Source of the DNA: a virus
DNA: 25,894 nt
Reading direction: 5' to 3' (one strand)
Virus record (IMG/VR): IMGVR_UViG_3300021077_000115
Coordinates: 366,064-391,957 of that record
A model generated the notes under the pieces. It was not told where the DNA came from. It was given only the letters and a program-made list of their open reading frames with translations, and searched no databases. Positions 10-20,135 of the stretch are shown one piece after another. Both the position numbers and the translations under genes were made by a program. Each line of letters opens with the position of its first letter. The first letter of the stretch is position 1.

Positions 10-1920
10 TTATCCTGGAGGAGCTGGTGGTTTCGGTGCTCCACCGCCGCCTCCGCCAATCGGAGATGGTGGTGGTGATCCAGACATTGGACCAGGTCCG
101 GGAGGTGCTCCTAATCCCCCACCTAATCCACCTGGTGCCGCTCCTCCACCTGGTGGAGTTATGAATGGACTTTCTCCTGGTACTGGTTGATCAATCTGAG
201 TCACCTCATCAATCTCATCGCCAGGTCCAAGAGCCCTTAGCTCATGAAGATCATATTGTGCTAGAGAGGCTAGTTCTTTGATTCGAATTGCATCTTGAAT
301 ATCTTCGTAGCGAATCTTTCTCTGCTCTTCTTCGTATTCAAGACCAAGGCTTCTATATAGCGTTTGCAATGAAGCGCGCTTAGCCACACCTTCGCCGGTT
401 GTAAGCTGAACCATCTGATTGATGTAACTATCCATATCAAACAATGACATGTGATTCCAATCAATCTCTGGAACAATAAGAGTCTTCTCTCCGTCAATTA
501 GGTCATAAAAGTCCTGGATTTGTGCAATTGGAGCGAAGATTTTTCTCTTCAACCAACTAGACATCATTTGACGGAATTGCATGTATCTCTGTCGCAACAC
601 ATCCAAAGCAACAGATCCTGTTGCATAAGTGGTATCACTGCCATCCATAATAACCGATGGAACCATCAAGCCAATATAGATCTCTTTGATAAGCTGAGTC
701 ACGTCAGCCGAAGTATCATAAATACCCTGGCCATATCCAATACGATCAACGGTTACGGCATCATGGGTGAAAATCTTGAAGTCCCTATCGTATTGAGCTT
801 GCTCGAATACGTGTCTCCAGTTCTCAAGATCAACTGGGCTTGGACGGAATTCCTGGTTTCCAATCTTAACCAATGTCAATGGATTGACCATGTTATCTGC
901 TTGTGCATACTTAGATTCGCGCAATTTGTCCCACAACATAAGAGCTCGGAAACACGAAACAATAAGGCCCGTTCCACGAATTTCGTATGGGGAAATTCTT
1001 CTAGCCATATGATGCACATAGAAGTTGTTTAGGGGGATTTGCTCATTCTTTCGTACATGCTCAATGATCGAAGGGTCCAGCTGCTTGCGCTGTTGTAGAT
1101 CTGATGGTTGATTACCAAAAACTACTCGTCTAAGATTCTCATCTGGGCGCATACTAATGATTGGCTCTGCCGCAATTACGCTACGCTGTACGTTGACATA
1201 ATCCGGATTGAGAATCATCAGGCGGCTCCAACTTCCCTTGCTCTCGTCTAACTCGCAATAAGTAAAGGCCTCACCAAGAATCCAAAATTCTTGGGCTGCC
1301 ATACAGGCAATATTCATTAGATCAATTTCCTCCGACATTTGGGAGAAGAACTTCTCTACCTTCGGATTCTTTGATTTGATATTCAACTTAGCAATTGGAT
1401 AAGTTGAGTGTAATGTAATTGCATTATGAACAATTGGATTCAATGCAAAAAAGCTGCGGCTCCAAGCATTGATAGTTGGACGGTCTCTTGGTAAGTTGAG
1501 GTTCGAGTTCAACCATAGAGGAGAGTAGACTTCGGGAACTTGCCTTACAGAATCGTTAGAGCCACGCCAGCCCCCACCAGCAGAAGAGGCAACATTGCCG
1601 ACCCCACTGGCCATTTTATACATACCCTTGCCATTGTGAGTAACTACACCTAAACTAGTTTGAGCATTCCGAACTTCGCTGCGGCCACTCCTAGAAGATG
1701 AGAAACCAGACCCTTGCTCTCTCAGCTCTCCAGCATCAATCTGCATTTCCATAATATCTCGGCGTTGATCACTAACGCCACGAGCCATTCGATTGGAAAC
1801 CTCAGGAATACTAGAGAGAGCTATATTTTTGGCCATTAAGCTTTCAGAACGAGAAGCTATCTTAGCATTCCTTTCAATAAGGTCTTGCGCACGTGTTTTG
1901 GTATTATTAATATCCATCAT
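10..1920 (-). CDS. Putative portal protein (636 aa) with Gly/Pro-rich low-complexity C-terminal tail
   Basis: A 636-aa ORF begins 30 nt after the terminase large-subunit stop on the same strand. That is the canonical terminase-then-portal order, and the size fits a portal. I recognise no portal motif by eye, so the call rests on position and size. A weak SD (AGAGGA) sits about 3 nt before the ATG. Confidence 0.45.
   Translation of the reverse strand: MMDINNTKTRAQDLIERNAKIASRSESLMAKNIALSSIPEVSNRMARGVSDQRRDIMEMQIDAGELREQGSGFSSSRSGRSEVRNAQTSLGVVTHNGKGMYKMASGVGNVASSAGGGWRGSNDSVRQVPEVYSPLWLNSNLNLPRDRPTINAWSRSFFALNPIVHNAITLHSTYPIAKLNIKSKNPKVEKFFSQMSEEIDLMNIACMAAQEFWILGEAFTYCELDESKGSWSRLMILNPDYVNVQRSVIAAEPIISMRPDENLRRVVFGNQPSDLQQRKQLDPSIIEHVRKNEQIPLNNFYVHHMARRISPYEIRGTGLIVSCFRALMLWDKLRESKYAQADNMVNPLTLVKIGNQEFRPSPVDLENWRHVFEQAQYDRDFKIFTHDAVTVDRIGYGQGIYDTSADVTQLIKEIYIGLMVPSVIMDGSDTTYATGSVALDVLRQRYMQFRQMMSSWLKRKIFAPIAQIQDFYDLIDGEKTLIVPEIDWNHMSLFDMDSYINQMVQLTTGEGVAKRASLQTLYRSLGLEYEEEQRKIRYEDIQDAIRIKELASLAQYDLHELRALGPGDEIDEVTQIDQPVPGESPFITPPGGGAAPGGLGGGLGAPPGPGPMSGSPPPSPIGGGGGGAPKPPAPPG
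13..190 (-). repeat. GC-rich low-complexity tract encoding a poly-Gly/Pro tail (PPGGGAAPGGLGGGLGAPPGPGP...GGGGGGAPKPPAPPG)
   Basis: A stretch of ggtgg/ccacc/cctcc-rich sequence stands out against the AT-rich surroundings. It encodes the last ~60 residues of the 636-aa protein. The + strand ORF 5..190 is the mirror-image artefact. Confidence 0.6.
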
Positions 1921-1949: not shown

Positions 1950-3818
1950 TTATCCACGGCCACCAAACATCTTAGGAATATACCCAACAACTGCCTGGAT
2001 TGGACGTGCGCTTGTAGCTAGTTCGTATTTCATATATTGTGGATTGCTAATCGTGAATCCCTGGGTTACATCGAATTTCCAAGCCAAATAGGCATTCAAT
2101 AGCGCCATCAAACCGTCGTTAGCTACAGACCCTTTTACATACTTTTTTAAAGGCTCCCCTGACTTATCCCTAGTAACTTTAATCTCCATACTTGCGCAAT
2201 GTTCGATTAGCCATTCGATTCGGTCTAAGCTCCCACCTGGAAACTTGATACGGCCTTCTTTCAAAAGCCCAAGCAACTCTGAAATATAATAGTCTTTTTC
2301 GAATACAACTGTCTTTGGCCACTCATCATTTGAATATTTTATGCGTCCATTTACCTTATGCGAAGAACGAGATGCCAAAAACTTCTCATCATAAATTAGT
2401 TGCAATTTATGTGTCAAGTCATATGCATCACCAATGTCGCCGATGGATAATGTCATATTGTAGCGCCTAAACATTTCCTCAACTGTATTCATCTTCGTCT
2501 CTGGATCTGGTCTAAGCAACCGAGTGGCAAATTCAACATTGAATACATTTCCAGAGGCAGTTAAAATAACAGCACAACTATAGGAACCTTTACGTCCTCG
2601 CCCAGACATCTGTTCAAGCGCTCCTCTCTGGCCCCAGTCGAATCCTGCATAAACTCGACGACCTTCATCAGGATAAATATACTTGACCATCTTGCGACCC
2701 TTATCGATGCACTTATCGCGAATCTCTTGGGACGTAATTGTTCCGCCTTCGCCGTCGTAGAATTCACCAAGAACTTCGTTCATGTAAACGCGCTCGGTAT
2801 TAATTGGACTACGCTCTGGCTTTGCTTTCTCTATGGTCTCTTTGGTAAAATTTGGAATGTATAATTGATTGATGTGATAGCCAACAAAATCACACTTCTC
2901 AGGATCGTTGATTGGAATCCATCGGCCACGTTCCTGAGCTTCAAGCTTATCTTGTTCGCAATGACACTCAGTACATCGAACAATCAAGCCATAGAGCCAT
3001 ACCTCTTCCCAGTTCACACCAGGATGATATAGAGGAAAATATTTTCCACATCTTTCACAGCGCAAATGAAAGTAATTCTGTGAAGAATTCTGCCACATAT
3101 TCCAATAAGATCCGCCTTTGGTCTTGGGCGTTCCATAATATACTTGAACACCTTCACCAGCCATTCCGTATCTGGATTGCGCTAGAATCTTTGTAGCTGC
3201 ACCGATAGCAGCGTCGGACATGTCTTGTACCTCATCAAAGAAAGTACCATCACAAGTACGACCACGAATTCTATCGCCGTCGATACCGGTCGATTCAATC
3301 CAAATCTGATTTCCAAACATGAATTTTTTGAAATGCATGTTGTTATTAGTCGGACTAGACAAATCCAAACGCGCTTCCATGTATGACTTCAGAATGCCAT
3401 TGCTCTTCATCATTCCTGGAACTGGAGCCGCGTGACCAATGATTGGATCAAGTTTATCTTTTGTATACGCTGCCGCTAAAGATAACGTCGGGAACAAATG
3501 CATCATGCGCATTGGTGGACGTTCGTTAGTACCAAACAATCCACAGGCACTGAAGTAACACTCAAGAGCTGCCGCCATCGTCGTCGCCCCCACCTGCCGT
3601 CCTTTCACAAGAACAATGGGTTTTGAGTTTGGCTCAATAGCTTTGAGTGCTATGTATCTGTAAATGTCGGCGAATGGCTTATAGCCAGTACCTTCTAATT
3701 GTAACGGCTTACCATCAACAGTTAAATATTTTGCACAAAAATATACCGGATCAAGACTTAGAATTCCGTCACGAAGTTTATAAAATAACTCATTAAATCC
3801 TATTTCTGCAGATTTCAT
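1950..3818 (-). CDS. terL: Terminase large subunit (ATPase + nuclease), 622 aa
   Basis: It has a Walker A-like motif (VLVKGRQVGATTM) and a Walker B/catalytic motif (DGTFFDEVQD). The length of ~620 aa and the position directly upstream of the portal candidate fit. This is the standard TerL architecture. Confidence 0.85.
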   Translation of the reverse strand: MKSAEIGFNELFYKLRDGILSLDPVYFCAKYLTVDGKPLQLEGTGYKPFADIYRYIALKAIEPNSKPIVLVKGRQVGATTMAAALECYFSACGLFGTNERPPMRMMHLFPTLSLAAAYTKDKLDPIIGHAAPVPGMMKSNGILKSYMEARLDLSSPTNNNMHFKKFMFGNQIWIESTGIDGDRIRGRTCDGTFFDEVQDMSDAAIGAATKILAQSRYGMAGEGVQVYYGTPKTKGGSYWNMWQNSSQNYFHLRCERCGKYFPLYHPGVNWEEVWLYGLIVRCTECHCEQDKLEAQERGRWIPINDPEKCDFVGYHINQLYIPNFTKETIEKAKPERSPINTERVYMNEVLGEFYDGEGGTITSQEIRDKCIDKGRKMVKYIYPDEGRRVYAGFDWGQRGALEQMSGRGRKGSYSCAVILTASGNVFNVEFATRLLRPDPETKMNTVEEMFRRYNMTLSIGDIGDAYDLTHKLQLIYDEKFLASRSSHKVNGRIKYSNDEWPKTVVFEKDYYISELLGLLKEGRIKFPGGSLDRIEWLIEHCASMEIKVTRDKSGEPLKKYVKGSVANDGLMALLNAYLAWKFDVTQGFTISNPQYMKYELATSARPIQAVVGYIPKMFGGRG

Positions 3819-3875
3819 TTATACCTATCTATATAACACATATATGAAAATACAGATAAATGTATAGAATTACAA

Positions 3876-4754
3876 TTACAGATGGCCTTTATCTGGCTCT
3901 AATAGGGTAAACGGATCCTTGTTTGAGTCTTTGTCCCCTGAATAATCAACGTGAGTACCCACACCACGTCCAATGTGAGATGGGACATCATTCCTAGCAA
4001 CGCCCTTATTAATGAGTCTTCCGTTGATCCAATCTAGCAACTCCCTGTCTGAGAAAATTCGATGGTCAACCCCGTCTCTACTAAAGGTTTCAATCAATGA
4101 ATGGAGAATGGCTGGCATCTGAATGCCAATATTTGTCTCTATTACGTTATTGAGAAAGTGCTCAATAGCCGGATTTTCTACGAGTAAATCTGGTTTCTCG
4201 GCATCATCTGCCTCAGAGATTAATTTTTTTTTTCCAGGGTTAGCCTGTAGTTCCTCTTCGGTCATATCGCGAGCTTCGCCATAATCAAGATTCCTTCGGA
4301 AGGCATCAATGGCATCGTCCTTATCACCATCGTCTTCGTCCTCCTCTTCTTCCTCGTCTTCATCTTCCTCGTCCTCATCATCATCCTCTTCGTCTTTGTC
4401 CTCTTCTTCCTCATCTTCGTCTTCGTCATCTTCGGAAGCTTTGGCAATTATTTCGCTAGCAATGGCACTAAGATCGCTTTCGCTGGCTCGCTTCATATAT
4501 TCATCAAGCCCAGTTTGACGCTGATAGTCCTTCACAGCCTCTTCGACAGAGCTATACTTTGGCTTCTGGCCACTAACGATAGCACTCATCATTTCATAAA
4601 TAGAAGGCTGATGCTGACGATCCCTAGCAACTTCAACGGCAGTCTTAGAAGAAGCCATTTTAGTAGCAAGCAGATCAATCCAATCTGGACACTGATCGTC
4701 AGGCTCTCGGCTAATCTCATCGGTTCTGTAAAAGGCACCCTTGTAATTACGCAT
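3876..4754 (-). CDS. Hypothetical protein with ~45-residue poly-Asp/Glu tract (292 aa), located directly upstream of terL
   Basis: It is a long ORF with a good SD (AGAGGA, 5-nt spacer) before the ATG at 4754. It contains the run EDDEDEDEEEEDKDEEDDDEDEEDEDEEEEEDEDDGDKDD. I could not assign a function. Confidence 0.65.
   Translation of the reverse strand: MRNYKGAFYRTDEISREPDDQCPDWIDLLATKMASSKTAVEVARDRQHQPSIYEMMSAIVSGQKPKYSSVEEAVKDYQRQTGLDEYMKRASESDLSAIASEIIAKASEDDEDEDEEEEDKDEEDDDEDEEDEDEEEEEDEDDGDKDDAIDAFRRNLDYGEARDMTEEELQANPGKKKLISEADDAEKPDLLVENPAIEHFLNNVIETNIGIQMPAILHSLIETFSRDGVDHRIFSDRELLDWINGRLINKGVARNDVPSHIGRGVGTHVDYSGDKDSNKDPFTLLEPDKGHL
4321..4430 (-). repeat. Low-complexity GAN-codon repeat (poly-acidic tract)
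   Basis: The + strand reads tcttcgtcctcctcttcttcctcgtcttcatcttcctcgtcctc... This creates spurious poly-Ser and poly-Lys/Arg ORFs in other frames (4309..4518 +, 4262..4447 -). Confidence 0.7.
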
Positions 4755-4761
4755 ATTTATC

Positions 4762-4795
4762 CTCTGTATTATGCAGCAAGCTGTATTATAGAATT
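4762..4795 (-). promoter_or_regulatory. Direct repeat of ATAATACAG (minus-strand sense) with a perfect TATAAT box, ~10–35 nt upstream of the acidic-protein gene
   Basis: The minus-strand reading is tcTATAATACAGcttgctgcATAATACAGaggataaatATG. The same 10-mer ATAATACAGC occurs in the 16404..16552 boundary region. Confidence 0.3.
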
Positions 4796-4838
4796 ATTTT
4801 TGTATTGTTTAGATAATATTCGGATTTATCGCGCATCA

Positions 4839-5744
4839 TTATCCTCGGTATTGCGCACTCCAATCAAACCCATCATTTCTATAAGTTTCAATGTGACTGC
4901 CAACAGCATATCCTCTATCCTGAGACATAGGAAATCCCATATCTGCTAATAACTGGGAAAGTTCAGCCTGCTCCCTTTTATCAAGAGTATATTCTTCTAC
5001 TTGACGCTTGAATATATCCTCAATATCATGTCCGGCCGATACCATTCCATTGATACAAACACGCGCAATTCTTGAAATCAACAATGGAACTGTAATCGTA
5101 ATACCAGTGATATTTGTGGCCTTTTGAGCCTCTTTGACAATGCCAGAATCTTCTGACCAGCTCTTGCTCTTCTTCTTCTTGTGACGCTTGTACTTATCAA
5201 CCTTCACACTCTCTAGACGGTCTAGTAGGCGCTCAAGTCCATTTTCAATTTGCTCACGAGCCCGCTCGGCCTGTGCGGCATCAATCTCATCTTTGAAATC
5301 GGTACGCATAGCTTTTGATATCTCACGATCCAACGCTTCAAAATAAGCAATTGCCTTTTCCAATCCGGTAGTATCATAACCAGAATGTGGGGGAACGCCA
5401 TTGAACATTTTGCTAAGCCAAGGAAGGAAGCTAGAGTGTTCCCATTTCCATGCATCAGAATCTGCAGGATCGGCCTCTACCTCAATATCTTCGTCATCAC
5501 CGTCATTCTCTACAATAATATCCTGTGCATCAGGAGCACCCGGAATCTTGTCAAGATTGAAAATGACTTCATGAGGATCTTTTGAGACCTCAATATTATC
5601 ACCTATTTCAAAGGACGGAAAATGATGCCCGCCTCCCATCAAAGGGACAATAACTTCTCCTAAATCTTGTGCGCGTTTTTCTACCATTACAACCTCAATG
5701 TTGCTAACAAACCTATTCTGAATTATTCGTATAAATTCTTCCAT
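4839..5744 (-). CDS. Hypothetical protein (301 aa)
   Basis: This is a long ORF in the same orientation as its neighbours. It is preceded by a 213-bp AT-rich intergenic region. I saw no recognisable motif. Confidence 0.55.
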   Translation of the reverse strand: MEEFIRIIQNRFVSNIEVVMVEKRAQDLGEVIVPLMGGGHHFPSFEIGDNIEVSKDPHEVIFNLDKIPGAPDAQDIIVENDGDDEDIEVEADPADSDAWKWEHSSFLPWLSKMFNGVPPHSGYDTTGLEKAIAYFEALDREISKAMRTDFKDEIDAAQAERAREQIENGLERLLDRLESVKVDKYKRHKKKKSKSWSEDSGIVKEAQKATNITGITITVPLLISRIARVCINGMVSAGHDIEDIFKRQVEEYTLDKREQAELSQLLADMGFPMSQDRGYAVGSHIETYRNDGFDWSAQYRG

Positions 5745-5957
5745 ACCTTGTAAGCCAATATCTTGCGAATATAGTCTTTTGAGACCTTAAACCTAATAAA
5801 TAAATTAGAAACTCCTTGATAATATAGATTTCTAATATTAATAATATCCTCAGATTTTAATTTTATTCTATTTTTCCAGGCATCACTCATCTTCTTTTTG
5901 TTTCTTGGCTAACAATTCTTCCACTAAGCTTTTTGGAGACCTTCTCTTTTTGCTGAC

Positions 5958-6443
5958 TCATATTTTCCTTATAATATCAATTATATAACTACCTTGAAGG
6001 CTATAAGTTCCAAAGTATAAGTTTCTCGTCACATTGTAGTCGCTGAGGTAACCGGCGGGATAAGTAGTCAGACCTGTGATGATACCATTGAACATCTTGG
6101 AATAATATGGTGATGGCATCAGTGGTTGAGCCGGACCTTGCCCAGGAGCCGTATCATCGTGATTACATTCTACCGCATCATTATGTTCTAGAATATGCCC
6201 CGCATACTTACAAGGAGACGGTTCATCTGAGCTTCGTAATAAATTCCAAGCAAGAAGCTTAGCATTAGCGGCAGCTAACATTTCCTTTTCATCCTCGGAT
6301 GCTTCCTTGCCCATAACTCCAAACGGTGCCATTTGGTCTACATAATCGCCGGCATTTTTGCAGGCAAATGGTATTGGAAGACCGAATGGGCATTTGTTCT
6401 CTTCATTCTTACGAACTTCTGCTATTTTTAAATGACGCTTCAT
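5958..6443 (-). CDS. Hypothetical Cys/His-containing protein (~160 aa from internal ATG), translationally coupled (ATGA) to the upstream nucleotidyltransferase
   Basis: The ATG at 6443..6441 overlaps the TGA stop (6442..6440) of the nucleotidyltransferase ORF. The six-frame ORF runs further upstream (to 6497), but its first Met in context is the ATGA one. It contains CPFGLPIPFACKNAG and CKYAGHILEHNDAVECNHDD. Confidence 0.5.
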   Translation of the reverse strand: MKRHLKIAEVRKNEENKCPFGLPIPFACKNAGDYVDQMAPFGVMGKEASEDEKEMLAAANAKLLAWNLLRSSDEPSPCKYAGHILEHNDAVECNHDDTAPGQGPAQPLMPSPYYSKMFNGIITGLTTYPAGYLSDYNVTRNLYFGTYSLQGSYIIDIIRKI

Positions 6444-7192: not shown

Positions 7193-9151
7193 TTATCGAA
7201 CATCAATTCTTGGGGCTCGTTCAATCGTAGAGACTGGCTTCTGCAAATCAGCAGATTCTCCAACAGGAACAGCGGCTGGGCCTACATCTGGGCCTGCAGC
7301 TCCGCCCTGCATCTTCGCAAGATCTTGTTCCTTACGCATCTCTTTGCGCTTTTCATCTTCGTCCTTCTTTTGTTGTAGATTGTTCCTGATATTAGTGGTT
7401 TCAGGATTCATCGCAACAGTCTTTGGCTCAATCCATTCAGAAGCACCAGGTACCTCAATTGATCCTTTAAGCCTAGTAAGCACACCCTCTAGGCGACTTC
7501 CGATGTATTGGTTCGACTCAAGAGCCTTACTCATTGCCTCGCCCAAAGCTGGGAAGAATGAAGATAGGCTAAGGCGATCCATCATAATATCAAGGATAGC
7601 TAACTGACGAGCAATCTCTCGTTTGTTATAAATCGAAACAAGCATTTCCAATCTACTCACAACATCATTGATACTCACGCCCTTGAGAGCTGCGTCAATA
7701 ACATCTTCTGTATTATCCTCTGGAGTCTCTTCCACTGGCGGAGGTGCTTCCACAACACTTGGTGGAACATCAGGTGGCGGTGGGGGAGGTGGTGACGGAG
7801 AAAGTGCTTCTTGAGCAAACTTTGAACGAGGATGCCAATACCCACGACCAATCTTAATTACGTCTGCAACCTCAATAGCCGCTGCGGCCTGTGGGGCACT
7901 TGGCTGAGGCTGAGCAATAGGCGGTGGAGCTTCTACAGCTGGCACGCCAGCTGGCGCTGGAGGAAGTGGAGGCACCTCATGGCTTCGTTCTGACCTCCTC
8001 TCCTCTGGTGTATCGTCTTTATCTGAGACTCCTCTCTCTAGATTATCAAAGAATTCTTTTAGACATTGATAAGTATCATTCTTATCCCCTTCACCTGATG
8101 GTGGGGCTTCTACTCCAGGAATACCTGGAGGTGGAGTCATGCCTCCTGATGGATCTAGTTGAGCCAGCTTATAAAAGAAACCAGCAGCGCCATCCTTGCC
8201 TCTTGCCTTTAATAGGTTTGCTGCTCGATAGATTTGGTCTACGAACAATGAAGAACCAGATGTTAGCTTGTTGGCGGTTTGAATTCTTCGCTTCAGATCT
8301 TGAAGAAGCTTCAGCATCAGCTCCTGATCATCGCCAGCAAATAATTGACCATCCATAGAGGCCAACATTTTCTCTGCCGAGTTTAGGCGGCTAATGAGCT
8401 TTCTACGTTGTCCTTCAATTTTATCGCGAGCAGAATTAACGTCACCTTGTGGCATGCCAGGGAGCTCATCTCTCATCCCTCCGATGGGATTTGGGAACTT
8501 TCCACTACGATGTCGAGCGCGCAAAGAATCTACACCGATAGGAAGATTAGCTAGAAATAGCCCATCTTGAGCCAGCTTGGGATACTTCTCGGGAGTCCTC
8601 TCCTTATAGAATTTCAGCCATTGTTCATAGTCCATTTGTTCCTTTGCTTCCCAGTTACCAATTACAGATTTTTTTGCTTGAATAGGATCATTACCTTTAC
8701 TCATTAAACCATATATCTCGCGAGTAGCCGCTACCCAACGACCAATGTCATATTTAGGGAATTCTGAAATTGACCCAGGTTGTGGGTAAGCGATCTTTGG
8801 TCTAATATGTCCAGATACCATCTTCTTTAATGCGAGATCAGTGGCTTCTATCAGCTGTAAAAGTGTACCGATTGGTGCTTTTTCTCTGTTCCTGAACACT
8901 TCCGCAGCAATTGCACGAGCTGTAGAGTCATTGAGTTTTACCTTAAATATCAAATGAGCAATCTCTGGGACATGATTTCTTACCAAGAAGAATCTATTTT
9001 GGTCTTCGTCATTGTCGATACCAAGCTGTGACATCGTATCAAAATCAGATAGCACTCCGTTCCGAAGGTCTTCTGGTAAGCATTCACAATTTGCCGAATC
9101 AACTTGGCGCTGAAAGTGTTCATTAAAAGTCATCGGACTCCTCATCTTCAT
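7193..9151 (-). CDS. Hypothetical proline-rich protein (652 aa) with three VEAPPP-type repeats
   Basis: It is a long ORF. The central region reads GIPGVEAPPSGE / GVPAVEAPPPIAQPQPSAP / PPPPPPPDVPPSVVEAPPPVEE. I found no enzymatic motif. Confidence 0.6.
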   Translation of the reverse strand: MKMRSPMTFNEHFQRQVDSANCECLPEDLRNGVLSDFDTMSQLGIDNDEDQNRFFLVRNHVPEIAHLIFKVKLNDSTARAIAAEVFRNREKAPIGTLLQLIEATDLALKKMVSGHIRPKIAYPQPGSISEFPKYDIGRWVAATREIYGLMSKGNDPIQAKKSVIGNWEAKEQMDYEQWLKFYKERTPEKYPKLAQDGLFLANLPIGVDSLRARHRSGKFPNPIGGMRDELPGMPQGDVNSARDKIEGQRRKLISRLNSAEKMLASMDGQLFAGDDQELMLKLLQDLKRRIQTANKLTSGSSLFVDQIYRAANLLKARGKDGAAGFFYKLAQLDPSGGMTPPPGIPGVEAPPSGEGDKNDTYQCLKEFFDNLERGVSDKDDTPEERRSERSHEVPPLPPAPAGVPAVEAPPPIAQPQPSAPQAAAAIEVADVIKIGRGYWHPRSKFAQEALSPSPPPPPPPDVPPSVVEAPPPVEETPEDNTEDVIDAALKGVSINDVVSRLEMLVSIYNKREIARQLAILDIMMDRLSLSSFFPALGEAMSKALESNQYIGSRLEGVLTRLKGSIEVPGASEWIEPKTVAMNPETTNIRNNLQQKKDEDEKRKEMRKEQDLAKMQGGAAGPDVGPAAVPVGESADLQKPVSTIERAPRIDVR

Positions 9152-15911: not shown

Positions 15912-16403
15912 TTACCCCACCGCTACCTTGCGCAACTCTGGGAAACGCTGTGCAATCAATTCACGCCCACTAGACGCTACCTTACTGAGCAATGCCTTCT
16001 GTAAGCCCTGATCCGTTTCCAGCTTACGTGGCAGCCATCGACGAACGAGACCGAACTCTTCAACTGGAATCCCAAGATCCTCTGAAGACAAAGAAACAAG
16101 GGGTTCGCCCTTGTAGAACACATGCATTGCCTTCTTATCTGGAATTGCATCCCAATCTTTTTGGACACTGGATTCTGACGTCTTCATTGCGCCATCCTCT
16201 CCATATAGAGCAACAATGACGGGACCATCATCGCTTTCCTCAATCTTCCATAGCTGATCGGTATCGGCATTATCTCGAAAACGAACCAAGTCATAAGCAA
16301 CGCGCTCAATACGATCTTCGACATCAGCGAGACGGTAGGCACGCTTCTTCGGAAGTAGCGTTTGGGTCAGATGATTAAAATCAACTGTGAACTTATCCTT
16401 CAT
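15912..16403 (-). CDS. Hypothetical protein (163 aa), first gene downstream of a 424-bp intergenic region
   Basis: The ORF has a strong SD (GGAGA, 5-nt spacer) before the ATG at 16403. A TATACT -10-like box lies about 20 nt further upstream on the minus strand. Confidence 0.6.
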   Translation of the reverse strand: MKDKFTVDFNHLTQTLLPKKRAYRLADVEDRIERVAYDLVRFRDNADTDQLWKIEESDDGPVIVALYGEDGAMKTSESSVQKDWDAIPDKKAMHVFYKGEPLVSLSSEDLGIPVEEFGLVRRWLPRKLETDQGLQKALLSKVASSGRELIAQRFPELRKVAVG

Positions 16404-16494
16404 GATTCTCCAAATTAAATGGTAGTATAGGCAACTGCGCTAAATCCATACGAAAGTAGTGATAGAAGAAAAACACGGCCATTCCGTACCTACA

Positions 16495-16520
16495 ACATAT
16501 CTGCTGTATTATTGGTTACT
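16495..16520 (-). promoter_or_regulatory. Second copy of the ATAATACAGC motif, ~100 nt upstream of the 163-aa gene in the long intergenic region
   Basis: The minus-strand reading is accaATAATACAGCagatatg. A TATACT -10-like hexamer lies closer to the ATG at ~16423..16428. Confidence 0.25.
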
Positions 16521-16552
16521 ATATCTAAGAACCAATAATTTCGTATGATTTA

Positions 16553-16831
16553 ATGGAGACATTCTTAAGCATCCCTCTTGAAGCTATCACTACTTCAGGC
16601 AACAACGCTTTCCACTGGAAGGGTGTTGTTGGGGACGTTTTAATTACAATATCTGGCAAGAAGTTATCAAAAGATTCCTTCAATTATATTGTATATGTAG
16701 ATTTGTGCGGATTTCCTGAAAAGTGGTGGCCTGGCAACAGAATACAAATCGCAGAAGCTTCTGGAGAAAACCTCTTATTTCTAGAGACGGAAATAAGACG
16801 GCAGCTGAGGAGGCTGCAGATCAACCTCTAA
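16553..16831 (+). CDS. Questionable small ORF (92 aa) inside the intergenic boundary region
   Basis: This is the only + strand ORF not embedded in a minus-strand gene. It has no SD, contains the hairpins described below, and overlaps the probable minus-strand promoter region, so it is probably not coding. Confidence 0.2.
   Translation: METFLSIPLEAITTSGNNAFHWKGVVGDVLITISGKKLSKDSFNYIVYVDLCGFPEKWWPGNRIQIAEASGENLLFLETEIRRQLRRLQINL
16776..16819 (-). terminator. Pair of adjacent stem-loops immediately after the stop of the sigma-like gene (candidate terminator)
   Basis: Perfect 8-bp inverted repeat cttatttc-N8-gaaataag (16776..16799) and a 5-bp one gcagc-N7-gctgc (16803..16819). On the minus-strand transcript the first is followed by aggUUUUCUcc. 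The stems are AT-rich, so this is a weak call. Confidence 0.3.
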
Positions 16832-17265
16832 TTATACTGAGAATGAATCTCGGCAATTTGGGTAATGATATCCTGAATCTTTGGGTCTCTATCTGCCAAG
16901 CGGCGCAACTTCTTCTTGGCCCCTCCGTAAATCTTTCGGCCATTGCGGTAGTCACAATTTCCATTCACTGACTTTGTGATGGAGCTTTGATTGACATTGA
17001 GCTGCTTTGCAATCTCAATTTGGGTGTAACCCTTGCTCAAAAGTTCAATGACTTGGAATTGACGTCCAGTCAGATTCTCTTTGGCCAGCCTCCAAAATTC
17101 GCCCTTCAGCTGTTCCCTTAATACCAACAGCTGCTCTCTGTCTTCTGGATTATAGTTTTCTACCAAGCCTTGAGCTTCCGAAAACTCAGCCATCATTTCA
17201 TTAGAGTATGGTTGTTCAGCAAATAAATGTTGATATCCGTTCGATCTGTTTGTTTTCCTTCCCAT
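16828..17265 (-). CDS. Sigma-70 region-4-like HTH DNA-binding protein (putative phage transcription factor / sigma-like), 145 aa
   Basis: LTGRQFQVIELLSKGYTQIEIAKQLNVNQSSITKSV...AKKKLRRL fits the sigma-70 region-4 / LuxR-type HTH pattern (L..RE..V..L...G.t..EIA..LgvS...V......A..KLR). The annotated start overlaps the primase by 50 nt. The true start may be the internal MMAEF at ~17196. Confidence 0.55.
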   Translation of the reverse strand: MGRKTNRSNGYQHLFAEQPYSNEMMAEFSEAQGLVENYNPEDREQLLVLREQLKGEFWRLAKENLTGRQFQVIELLSKGYTQIEIAKQLNVNQSSITKSVNGNCDYRNGRKIYGGAKKKLRRLADRDPKIQDIITQIAEIHSQYN

Positions 17266-18070
17266 CTAATCTCCCGAAGCTCTTTAATGTATCTATAACA
17301 TGCCGAATCTCTTCTATATCTTTTGAGCCTCGAAAAAACTCATCAATATCCTTAAATCCACTAGGAGGACTTATCAGTTTAATATTTGCCACATCCTTAA
17401 ACTTTTCCCTAATCCTAAACTTTCCCTTCTTCCCGGCATCATCATTATCAAGCATAATGATTATATTGTTTGTATACCTATGAATCTGGAACATTTGATA
17501 TCTAGATAAATTAGCCCAACCAAATGCAACGGCATTTGTAATTCCATTTGCATGTAGTGAAATACAATCAAATTGTCCCTCTACACCTATAACACAGTCA
17601 TTAGCTATAATTGAATCACGGGCCTTATCTAAACCATAGACATACAGATCTTTTCGGCAGCCAGCATTGTAATTATACTTCTGCATCTCCCTTTCACGGC
17701 GTTCTTCTTCTGATATCAAACACCTACCAACTAAAGCAATTACCTCTCCGTGTACATTATAGAAAGGCATCACTAGATTATGATCTGCAAAATGTCCATG
17801 AGGAGCCGTTCCCCCTTCAAGATGCTTTGGATAATATAACTTAAGAGATTCTAAGTCATCCTTATCAATCATCGAAGTAAGATCACAAAGATGATCATCA
17901 ACCGGGAAGTATCCAAACTTCCATGCCATTTGATCGTCTTTATCGAGGCGTGAATTTAAGTAGCGTCTGGCTAGGCGTGCAGAGTCAGATGTCAGCAATA
18001 AATGCTGACATGCTCTAACTACCTTTTGTAGAATCTTTTGTCTCGCGTTATGTTGAATAAATGATCTCAT
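17216..18070 (-). CDS. dnaG: DnaG-type DNA primase catalytic core (TOPRIM), 284 aa, without an N-terminal zinc-binding domain
   Basis: ARRYLNSRLDKDDQMAWKFGYFP matches the DnaG YL..RGL....I..F.lGYAP signature. The TOPRIM motifs are VIGVEGQFDCISLHANGITNAVA (conserved E) and IIIMLDNDDAGKKG (DxD). Confidence 0.8.
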   Translation of the reverse strand: MRSFIQHNARQKILQKVVRACQHLLLTSDSARLARRYLNSRLDKDDQMAWKFGYFPVDDHLCDLTSMIDKDDLESLKLYYPKHLEGGTAPHGHFADHNLVMPFYNVHGEVIALVGRCLISEEERREREMQKYNYNAGCRKDLYVYGLDKARDSIIANDCVIGVEGQFDCISLHANGITNAVAFGWANLSRYQMFQIHRYTNNIIIMLDNDDAGKKGKFRIREKFKDVANIKLISPPSGFKDIDEFFRGSKDIEEIRHVIDTLKSFGRLDGKENKQIERISTFIC

Positions 18071-18430: not shown

Positions 18431-19429
18431 CTACTTCGGAGACGCTGGGATTATAACTGGCTTTTCCAAAACCGAAATCAAATCAGAAACATCTTCTGGG
18501 TACGTTACGTTTATCACAAACACATGTGCTCCATTGGGCGGCACACCAAACCCAGAAACTCTAACTCTGTCTCCATTCCTTATCTTTGGCTTGAACTCTA
18601 AAACCTTATCACCCCTAATGGTTCGAAGATTTTTCTTCGTTCCTTGGAGAGCCTCAAGTAAACTAAGCTCTACTGTAGATATAACATCACTCCCATCGAG
18701 TATTAGGCCATTCTCATTGGGTAGTACATTGATCATAACTACCAAGCTATCATATAGATCTTTGGTTCTATAGTTGCCTCTACCATTAAGGGTTAGGATC
18801 GTACCATTCTCAATACCAGCTGGAATTGGTATTGATATATCTTCTTTGATGCGTTTCTTAAAAGTACCATTGCATGATTGACATACGCCAGAAGTAGAAT
18901 AGCCAGTCCCCTTACATCCATTACATGGCAATTCACGATTGTCAGCAGGTTGAATAGCACCGCTTCCATATTTTCGTTTGCCAGTTCCATTACACTTGAT
19001 GCAAGTAGTTTTGATATTGGCATTATTACAATCAAAACATTTTACCAAACGAGAATAAGAAATATCCTTTCGGCCACCTACTATTGACATCTCAAATGGA
19101 ATATCAGCCTTCACAGCTATAGGCGGCCCTGGTATATTCGTGAATTTTTTATTGAACACCTCATCCATTTGGCGTCTAAGTTCTTCTGCCAAATGATCTG
19201 CTGTATTATAGAATGGAGATTTTAGATCATTGAATGCTGGAGGGCTTGTTCCAAACTTCTCTAGTAACTGAAAGGCCTCGTTAATTTTTTTGAACTTATC
19301 TTCAGCATCTGGAGATTTGTTTCTATCAGGGTGATACTCAATAGCCTTCTTCTTAAATGCCGCTTTGACATCAGTTCCTGATGCTCCAATAGGCAATCCA
19401 AGTAAGGCGCATGCGTCATGAGTGTTCAT
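18431..19429 (-). CDS. dnaJ: DnaJ/Hsp40-family co-chaperone homologue (J domain + CxxCxGxG zinc-finger domain + C-terminal substrate-binding domain), 332 aa
   Basis: The N-terminal J domain carries the invariant HPD (KKKAIEYHPDRNKSPDAEDKFKKINEAFQLL). The CR-type zinc-finger repeats are CFDCNN, CIKCNGTG, CNGCKGTG and CQSCNGTF. The CTD has the GTILTLNGRGN pattern. The start overlaps the ruvC stop as ATGA. Confidence 0.85.
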   Translation of the reverse strand: MNTHDACALLGLPIGASGTDVKAAFKKKAIEYHPDRNKSPDAEDKFKKINEAFQLLEKFGTSPPAFNDLKSPFYNTADHLAEELRRQMDEVFNKKFTNIPGPPIAVKADIPFEMSIVGGRKDISYSRLVKCFDCNNANIKTTCIKCNGTGKRKYGSGAIQPADNRELPCNGCKGTGYSTSGVCQSCNGTFKKRIKEDISIPIPAGIENGTILTLNGRGNYRTKDLYDSLVVMINVLPNENGLILDGSDVISTVELSLLEALQGTKKNLRTIRGDKVLEFKPKIRNGDRVRVSGFGVPPNGAHVFVINVTYPEDVSDLISVLEKPVIIPASPK

Positions 19430-20016: not shown

Positions 20017-20036
20017 AAAGAGTTATATATCAAAAA

Positions 20037-20065
20037 GAAAAGGAGGACTTTTGATCCTCCTTTTC
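20037..20065 (-). terminator. Strong factor-independent terminator hairpin (11-bp stem, 7-nt loop), plausibly bidirectional
   Basis: gaaaaggagga-cttttga-tcctccttttc forms a perfect 11-bp stem. On the minus-strand transcript it is followed by UUUUUGAUAU, 70 nt after the SSB-like stop and just upstream of ruvC. On the + strand it is followed by aattctatttt. Confidence 0.6.
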
Positions 20066-20135
20066 AATTCTATTTTAGCTTAGGCTAAGTTAATGAAGCT
20101 CATGTTCTTCACTATCTAGTAGTGAAAAACAAAGA

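Follow-up and report, generated by a model that had tools for sequence, protein, structure and literature searches.

How does a huge phage pass from the expression of its replication genes to that of its virion genes? To our knowledge, late-gene timing in huge phages without a known polymerase is essentially unstudied, and the locus described here raises the question directly. It lies in a 25,894-nt stretch of viral DNA (positions 366,064 to 391,957 of the IMG/VR record IMGVR_UViG_3300021077_000115, hereafter the window), in which a block of replication genes ends with the gene of a 145-residue helix-turn-helix (HTH) protein, which we call HTH145, and a second block, leading to the large terminase subunit (TerL) and the portal, opens with the gene p163 behind a conserved 30-nt element. 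HTH145 and this element form a testable pair at the replication/structural boundary: the protein is ubiquitous, extremely conserved, and neither a canonical sigma factor nor a LuxR or Ltr protein, and the element is conserved more deeply than the neighboring proteins. We tentatively read HTH145 as a late-operon activator sitting next to its probable target promoter, a reading that we consider quite possible, if a little short of probable.

HTH145 is a stand-alone HTH protein with a wing-like hairpin

The translation of the HTH145 gene is identical to the protein quoted in an earlier note on this DNA, which had described a small protein with a sigma-70 region 4 or LuxR-type HTH and an unusual 15-residue insertion, and both descriptions are borne out. 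The isoelectric point (pI) of the whole protein, 9.18, is basic; taken separately, the N-terminal half is acidic (pI 5.0) and the C-terminal half basic (pI 9.8). The HTH follows the pattern LTxRQxxV...GxTQxEIAxxLxVNQSSITK. GerE (PF00196) is the sole Pfam family to score above its cut-off (24.2 bits vs a gathering score of 23.5, E=2.6e-5), the match covering residues 64-96 of the protein and only positions 2-34 of the 57 in the model. The sigma profiles remain below threshold: Sigma70_r4_2 reaches 14.8 bits (E=0.023) for a cut-off of 25.7, Sigma70_r4 gives E=0.1, and TIGR02937, the sigma70-ECF (extracytoplasmic function) model of NCBIfam, reaches 22.6 bits (E=6.5e-5) for a cut-off of 42.9, with residues 25-98 aligned to model positions 79-152 of 165, i.e., to the C-terminal half of the ECF model. 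Two homologues, P0147 and P0154, exceed the Sigma70_r4_2 cut-off with 26.8 and 30.4 bits, respectively. The HTH of HTH145 is significant. Pfam gives no match to Sigma70_r2 in HTH145 at E<=1, and because region 2 is absent, HTH145 is not a sigma factor.

Other libraries were searched as well. PHROGs yields generic "transcriptional regulator" and "sigma factor" HTH families and, weakly, families of small terminase subunits, matched in their HTH regions (E from 1.5e-3 to 0.02); PADLOC gives weak matches confined to the HTH region (E about 1e-3 to 1e-2) and, for the p163 protein, none; and a sequence profile search of the PDB finds AdcR/MarR (E=7.5e-4, residues 62-101 only) as well as NarL, VpsT, and sigma-H (about 6e-3). 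The MarR family of Pfam has no match above cut-off in HTH145 (E=0.069), and Tfx (TIGR00721) scores 21.3 bits (E=1.9e-4) for a curated cut-off of 60.25, which leaves HTH145 outside that family. A tblastn search of 50,697 phage genomes with HTH145 returned no match.

The AlphaFold model of HTH145 has a mean predicted local distance difference test score (pLDDT) of 74.8, exceeding 90 for residues 40-100, and its confidence is also high for residues 120-145. It comprises a long helix (residues 40-64), three HTH helices (67-77, 82-88, and 93-101, pLDDT about 90), a β-hairpin (102-114, with strands 102-105 and 111-114) into which the recognition helix 93-101 passes directly, and two final helices. 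No dimerization, ligand, or receiver domain is present in the model, and MarR-like dimer helices are absent from it. The nearest structural neighbors, all insignificant, are sigma-4 domains (sigma-H, SigK, and FliA fragments), LuxR, and generic HTH proteins. HTH145 is, in sum, a stand-alone sigma-4/LuxR-like HTH protein with a wing-like hairpin, preceded by an N-terminal tail (residues 1-34) that is modeled as disordered, carries invariant residues (Table 1), and is a candidate for binding a partner.

The insertion that forms the hairpin, NGNCDYRNGRKIYGG, is the most conserved part of the family, being invariant or nearly so in 30 homologues and in 27 orthologues derived from the loci. Indeed, residues N101, G102, N103, C104, D105, Y106, N108, Y113, G114, and G115 are unchanged in the 30 homologues and the same in the orthologues of the 27 loci.

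A large huge-phage family held at one boundary

HTH145 belongs to a large, uncharacterized huge-phage family. The metagenomic protein collection contains 463 relatives, nearly all of 145 aa and carried by contigs of up to 463 kb; public pipelines name them "LuxR C-terminal-related" or "CsgD family", and most have a precomputed PF00196 match. An exhaustive profile search gave 366 clusters (50% identity) at E<=1e-10, nearly all of them 135-160 aa long and matching end to end. The 150 best representatives fall nearly all within the same range of lengths, and in the longer ones that were examined the extra length comes from inteins or from unrelated extensions at the termini, not from a sigma-2 domain. 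Selection on the protein can be read from the near-identical contigs L039, L040, and L041, whose HTH145 genes differ from that of the window by 35-37 DNA substitutions without a single amino acid change; third codon positions account for 32-33 of the substitutions. Because no residue has changed over that many nucleotide changes, the codons indicate that HTH145 is under very strong purifying selection.

The gene order primase, HTH145, variable cargo, p163, p508 is universal in the 36 loci that were retrieved via HTH145. Retrieval via p508 gave a second, independent set (n=48), and the same synteny is found in every one of these that extends far enough upstream, HTH145 being present in all of them. 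Altogether, the placement of HTH145 between the primase and the p163-p508 block is kept in about 80 huge-phage loci despite frequent insertions.

Family members of 275-302 aa carry mini-inteins, for which the Pfam family Intein_splicing scores up to 72.5 bits. These inteins occupy three insertion sites in or next to the recognition helix and the hairpin, at the window residues Q93/S94, K98/S99, and N103/C104, with the boundary patterns C...HN/C, C...AN/S, and C...KN/C as read from P0147, P0148, P0151, and P0170. Inteins are unusual in small transcription-factor-like proteins, and the three different sites within or beside the recognition helix point to this helix as indispensable and highly conserved.

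A conserved 30-nt element precedes p163

The true noncoding DNA of the boundary is a spacer of 149 bp (16404..16552), the longest in the window. Read along the minus strand, it contains in order a 10-bp inverted repeat, a terminator-like hairpin, the 30-nt element, an unconserved 5' untranslated region (UTR), a GGAG sequence, and the start of p163. The family consensus of the element is TCTAYYAYT-N7-RYAT-N3-TTTAGC. It is located 51-98 nt upstream of the p163 ATG in 33 of the 37 loci of the first set, and in the second set the same or a related element is located 38-73 nt upstream of this ATG, the order HTH145...p163 being unchanged. The element is kept even where p163 is merely 33-38% identical, and its invariant positions beyond those used for its discovery include A13, T15, and Y14.

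A position weight matrix (PWM) of the element gives the copy in the window 34.6 bits, and the correspondingly placed sites in relatives score 22-35 bits. With the 30-nt PWM, no other site exceeds about 15 bits in any of the 12-26 kb loci, and with a matrix of the 19-nt core the runners-up stay at or below 13 bits, except for an antisense site of 18.8 bits in L026. This antisense copy of the core, at position 5964 (minus strand) on a 459-kb contig, lies just upstream of the HTH145 start and is the only runner-up above 15 bits. A loose regular expression of the element is not enriched in the window. For a look-alike upstream of TerL (TTCTAT...GTAT, position 3868), the spacer that contains it is missing in relatives.

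The element is T-rich and contains no dyad symmetry, RNA pairing, consensus structure, or sigma-70 consensus. In relatives it is usually preceded by a hairpin and T-run, and those without the cargo gene found here (ORF92, see below) have a stronger, GC-rich hairpin at the equivalent place, e.g., GCCCACG...CGTGGGC (TTTTGTGTTTTTG). The stretch between the element and the Shine-Dalgarno sequence is unconserved, which fits a promoter with a 5' UTR behind it. A minority of loci depart from the consensus: L012, L034, and L036 have CATGTAATTAT-N3-GGYATA upstream of p163 instead of the TCTAY element, L297 and L300 keep the RYAT...TTTAGC half only, and other loci have ATAG-type upstream halves. On the evidence of these alignments, the element is a position-specific, conserved, promoter-like site.

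The earlier note had placed a promoter in this intergenic region, an idea that survives in the form of a conserved promoter-like element behind a terminator and that fails in the extent given to the region and in the motifs picked. Indeed, its TATACT box (16424-16429) is unconserved, being absent in L001, L003, and L004, and has no -35 partner; a scan of 16300-17000 found no sigma-70-like site, and we rejected the box as a -10 element. The second motif, ATAATACAGC, is enriched in the window and might be a promoter motif, but it is likewise unconserved, the spacers that carry it being absent in relatives and its site altered in L163. Three words recur in the window. Five exact copies of ATAATACAG were counted vs 0.4 expected, all on the minus strand (Table 1); the copy in the spacer is changed in L163, and relatives either lack the spacers of three copies or have them in altered form. 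TTCTATAATACAG is present twice, once in a spacer and once inside the DnaJ gene, and ATAATACAGCAGAT is present twice as well.

An opposite-strand accessory gene in an insertion hotspot

The 424-bp noncoding stretch that the earlier note had described between HTH145 and the next operon is mostly a 92-aa gene on the opposite strand, ORF92, and the claim to be the longest noncoding stretch of the window holds for the true spacer of 149 bp and not for the 424 bp. The TAA stop of ORF92 overlaps the TAG stop of HTH145. Gene callers call ORF92 in L039, L040, and L041, which encode an identical HTH145, and the frame stays intact at about 13% DNA divergence from these contigs, with 23-25 of the 36-37 differences at codon position 3 and conservative replacements. 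A protein search found 25 homologues (58-100% identity, about 92 aa) in the same phage clade. Taken together, the gene calls, the codon-position-3 bias, and the 25 homologues indicate, at the level of sequence, that ORF92 is a real accessory gene. Its predicted structure (pLDDT 76.5) combines a β-sheet of five strands with a helix at the C terminus; no significant match to ORF92 was found in a PDB fold search or in Pfam, PHROG, NCBIfam, or PADLOC.

In relatives, ORF92 is usually located at the same place, divergent from p163 across 137-149 bp; in L167 it is located elsewhere, after the NAPRTase gene. It is missing from the 37 IMG/VR loci, in which the gap between HTH145 and p163 measures 54 bp to 2.3 kb. 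The long gaps hold open reading frames (ORFs) that, labeled by eye, resemble HNH/Zn-ribbon and GIY-YIG homing endonucleases as well as M15-like and C39-like peptidases (Table 1). In L004 and L005, a duplicated fragment of the HTH145 C terminus (residues 123-145) is found at 7530-7598, just past the inserted gene. The space between HTH145 and the terminator-promoter unit is an insertion hotspot, occupied here by an ORF92 cassette on the opposite strand, and the supposed long noncoding region is to be corrected to an opposite-strand accessory gene in a homing-endonuclease hotspot.

The same correction applies to the two perfect inverted repeats that had been noted directly after the HTH145 stop. 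They exist, with a longer stem of 9 bp rather than 8, and both lie within the 3' end of ORF92. In L039, L040, and L041 their 5' arms are substituted, the minimum free energy rising from -24.9 to between -13.6 and -15.5 kcal/mol, and the hairpins are unconserved in these three contigs and in L166. A role of the double hairpin as the operon terminator is ruled out, since it lies inside ORF92 and is lost in relatives that are about 92% identical in DNA.

The perfect 10-bp inverted repeat of the spacer occurs only with ORF92, 8-9 of its 10 bp being kept in L163 and L166, and is possibly an operator or promoter of ORF92. Its arms (16508-16539) coincide with a weak promoter-like pair, TTGGTT-N16-AATAAT. 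No Shine-Dalgarno sequence was found for ORF92. Directly against its ATG, part of the downstream half of the p163 element is repeated in inverted orientation, and a leaderless ORF92 mRNA starting from this half-element is possible.

Gene order and other features of the window

According to the ORF list, the minus strand carries all long ORFs of the window. In the direction of transcription, HTH145 is preceded by genes for a UvsX-like recombinase, an SSB-like protein, a RuvC-like resolvase, DnaJ, a Zn-ribbon protein, and the DnaG/Toprim primase, and it is followed by p163, p47, p508, p1423, unknown proteins, a CCA-adding-like enzyme, TerL, and the portal. This gene content agrees with the earlier description of a replication block ending with the HTH gene and of a following block that runs to terminase and portal. 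Positions are collected in Table 1.

Table 1. Positions of the features discussed, counted along the window unless another locus is named
Feature	Position	Strand	Remarks
Portal	10..1920	-	
Large terminase subunit (TerL)	1950..3818	-	
p163	15912..16403	-	Opens the downstream block p163-p47-p508-p1423...TerL-portal; always after HTH145
Shine-Dalgarno GGAG of p163	16408..16411	-	Read from the sequence
30-nt element TTCTATCACTACTTTCGTATGGATTTAGCG	16438..16467	-	Starts 62 nt upstream of the p163 ATG
Terminator-like hairpin and T-run	16471..16491	-	Predicted to end the replication-block transcript
Perfect 10-bp inverted repeat ATTATTGGTT-N12-AACCAATAAT	16508-16517/16530-16539		Just upstream of ORF92
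Inverted partial copy of the downstream half of the element, TTTCGTATG-ATTTA, 14 nt	16539..16553	+	Abuts the ORF92 ATG
ORF92, 92 aa, ATG start	16553..16831	+	Convergent with HTH145; only plus-strand gene of the window
Hairpin, 9-bp stem	16773-16781/16790-16798	-	Within the ORF92 3' end
Hairpin, 5-bp stem	16801-16817	-	Within the ORF92 3' end
HTH145 gene, 145-aa basic protein	16828..17265	-	
Insertion NGNxDY...YGG, residues 102-115	16921..16962	-	Family-invariant in alignments; β-hairpin wing in the model
Sigma-4/LuxR-type HTH, residues 65-101, LTGRQFQVIELLSKGYTQIEIAKQLNVNQSSITKSV	16963..17073	-	From GerE, PDB profiles, and the model
N-terminal tail, residues 1-34	17164..17265	-	N6, R7, Y11, Q12, E17, S21, and G33 invariant
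DnaG/Toprim primase	17216..18070	-	Overlapped by the HTH145 gene by 50 nt
Intein-bearing members P0147, P0148, P0151, P0153, P0154, P0170, P0184	16954-16989 (window-equivalent)		
ATAATACAG copies	4764-4772, 4781-4789, 7708-7716, 16504-16512, 19201-19209	-	
Inserted ORF in gap, L004/L005	6504-7511 (locus)		
Inserted ORF in gap, L025	6444-7469 (locus)		
Inserted ORF in gap, L026	6435-7430 (locus)		
Inserted ORF in gap, L019	6130-7769 (locus)		
Inserted ORF in gap, L032	1836-2762 (locus)		
Inserted ORF in gap, L011	7021-7620 (locus)		
Inserted ORF in gap, L038	2059-2499 (locus)		

Some features of the window stand apart from the boundary. Within the replication block, the DnaJ gene (18431-19429) is full length, with the J domain, the Zn-finger region, and the C-terminal domain, and is kept in relatives. 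In the second-longest spacer of the window (20017-20135), only 18 nt separate the next start codon from a strong, GC-rich hairpin and its T-run, AAAAGGAGGATCAAAAGTCCTCCTTTTCTTTTT; the palindrome TTCACTAcTAGaTAGTGAA is present there as well. In the relative L170, the TerL homologue (3412-3999 and 4474-5757) is interrupted by an insertion of about 470 nt, possibly an intein, an intron, or a homing-endonuclease gene. No Rfam family and no tRNA was found in the window.

Does HTH145 read the element?

The activator that the earlier note had proposed to switch on late transcription from an adjacent promoter is partly supported by the position of HTH145 at the boundary and by the conserved element, and its alternative wording as a sigma factor falls with the absence of region 2. 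If HTH145 is such an activator, it would be expressed along with the replication genes, the transcript of their block would stop at the terminator-like hairpin, and a new transcript would begin at the asymmetric element. The RYAT...TTTAGC half of the latter would be the core promoter, and the TCTAYYAYT half would be the site of HTH145, bound as a monomer via the recognition helix and the β-hairpin wing, while the acidic, conserved, and disordered N-terminal tail would contact RNA polymerase. The outcome would be the activation of the structural (late) gene block. The promoter activity of the element, its binding by HTH145, and the contact between HTH145 and RNA polymerase are steps that we infer.

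A bolder version of this scheme, which we regard as improbable, makes HTH145 a "half-sigma", i.e., a stand-alone, sigma-4-like, winged promoter-specificity subunit that would read TCTAYYAYT-N7-RYAT-N3-TTTAGC and dock onto RNA polymerase via its tail. If true, HTH145 would be the master switch from replication to virion genes in a large clade of huge phages, and inteins homing into the recognition helix would underline its importance.

Several observations weigh against HTH145 as the activator reading the element. Across 27 loci, the sequence of recognition helix and hairpin (NQSSITKS-NGNCDY) does not vary, whichever variant of the motif is present, and the helix is invariant while the minority loci (L012, L034, and L036; L297 and L300) carry a different upstream half or motif, L012, L034, and L036 being the ones in which the unchanged helix was checked; because the helix is invariant, there is no signal of covariation between helix and motif class. 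The structure and profile searches yield only a generic HTH likeness, Foldseek returning nothing significant for HTH145 (best in the PDB, sigma-H 3mzy, E=0.46; best in BFVD, E=0.21). Furthermore, the element is single copy in each 12-26 kb locus, leaving its reuse as a late promoter hypothetical: in IMG/VR its exact 19-nt form has only seven occurrences, each on a contig of its own, some of these being as long as 124, 194, and 209 kb, and other spacers of the window (3819-3875 and 4755-4838) are unconserved or missing in relatives.

The strongest competitor of the activator reading is an ordinary LuxR/MarR-like regulator with targets elsewhere, e.g., a repressor or autoregulator of early or replication genes. 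The element would then be read by other factors, such as a sigma of the host or of the phage, or a phage polymerase whose gene lies outside the window, and its adjacency to HTH145 would be mere synteny. We hold this for possible, though rather unlikely. It is favored by GerE as the only Pfam family above cut-off, by the repressors and response regulators AdcR, NarL, and VpsT as best PDB profile matches, by a recognition helix that does not covary with the upstream motif variants, and by the single copy of the p163 element per locus. However, no conserved palindrome of the LuxR/MarR type was found, the only palindrome (16508-16539) belonging to the optional ORF92 cassette; HTH145 has neither a dimerization domain nor a ligand or receiver domain; and its position before the terminator-promoter unit withstands frequent insertions in about 80 loci.

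A role of HTH145 on DNA in replication or packaging, associated with an origin or the primase or similar to a small terminase, with the AT-rich element as an origin or recognition site, is a more doubtful prospect. The HTH145 gene is always adjacent to the primase gene, which it overlaps by 50 nt, there are weak PHROG matches to small terminase HTH regions, and the element is T-rich and single copy. On the other hand, the GC skew shows no inflection at 16.4 kb, neither iterons nor repeats surround the element, 13 kb and many genes separate the HTH145 gene from TerL, and the succession of terminator, element, variable spacer, and Shine-Dalgarno sequence is the layout of a promoter.

Lastly, a genuine phage sigma factor of the sigma-70 family, binding core polymerase and directing late promoter recognition alone, is very improbable: the weak Sigma70_r4_2, TIGR02937, and PHROG "sigma factor" matches, the two members above the Sigma70_r4_2 cut-off, and the insignificant structural neighbors sigma-H, SigK, and FliA would speak for it, but region 2 is absent, the HTH has only about 60 residues ahead of it, of which 34 are disordered in the model, TIGR02937 is covered in part and far below its cut-off, the longer members examined owe their length to inteins or terminal extensions, and no sigma-2-like partner was found among the other proteins of the window.

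Returning to HTH145 as a putative activator, if the pair does interact, it would constitute a new promoter/activator pair, a clade-wide late promoter with its reader, and would help to annotate hundreds of metagenomic huge-phage genomes.

Comparison with known systems

The closest functional parallel is the Ltr superfamily of late activators in Gram-positive siphophages (RinA, ArpU, LtrA of the Sigma70_r4 type, LtrB, and LtrC), which bind just upstream of the late operon (PMC3753634, PMC3152322). Like these proteins, HTH145 is small and basic, has a sigma-4-like HTH, is encoded by the last gene of the early/replication cluster, and is located directly upstream of a promoter-like region heading the morphogenesis and packaging genes. 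Unlike them, it has a central rather than C-terminal HTH, followed by a β-hairpin and two helices; it would bind one asymmetric element, which lies upstream of p163 and 12.6 kb ahead of terL, whereas the Ltr site is a DNA repeat region upstream of terS; and it comes from huge phages, with contigs of up to 463 kb. No match of HTH145 to the RinA, ArpU, or Ltr families was found in Pfam, NCBIfam, or PHROGs, and homology to LtrA was rejected, an hhalign comparison with LtrA of phage 37 giving a probability of 0.4%.

With sigma-70 region 4 and the ECF factors, HTH145 shares a long helix followed by an HTH, a sequence pattern resembling regions 4.1-4.2, and weak profile matches, but it is without region 2, its recognition helix is cut short by a β-hairpin of 13-15 residues, and it totals 145 aa. 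Jumbo phages without their own polymerase usually carry sigma homologues (PMC13282480), and by its domain content HTH145 is not one of these. With the LuxR/GerE proteins NarL, VpsT, and RcsB it has in common that it reaches the PF00196 gathering score; it differs from them in the lack of a receiver or ligand domain, in the hairpin that replaces a continuous recognition helix, and in the lack of an adjacent palindromic target. Set against the MarR type of winged helix, HTH145 has a wing-like hairpin in the model and no MarR-like dimer helices.

The terminator-element unit resembles the promoter-early stem-loop (PeSL) cassettes of T4-like phages (PMC2839356, PMC4122927), in which a hairpin terminator is followed by a promoter-like motif at the border of a hyperplastic spot or variable cargo. 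Unlike the PeSLs, which are dispersed in many copies, the unit described here is single copy per locus and has no sigma-70 early-promoter consensus.

Finally, T4 MotA/AsiA and gp55/gp33, as generally known and as described in PMC2988020, offer the precedent of a phage protein that stands in for sigma region 4 in contacting the upstream part of a promoter. The analogy, which is purely that, extends to a noncanonical promoter with an upstream box closer than -35. No AsiA-, gp55-, or gp33-like partner was found in the window, and no homology to the T4 factors was detected. If HTH145 is indeed a half-sigma, it would represent a mechanism of sigma appropriation, or split sigma, distinct from MotA/AsiA, from gp55/gp33, and from the Ltr activators.

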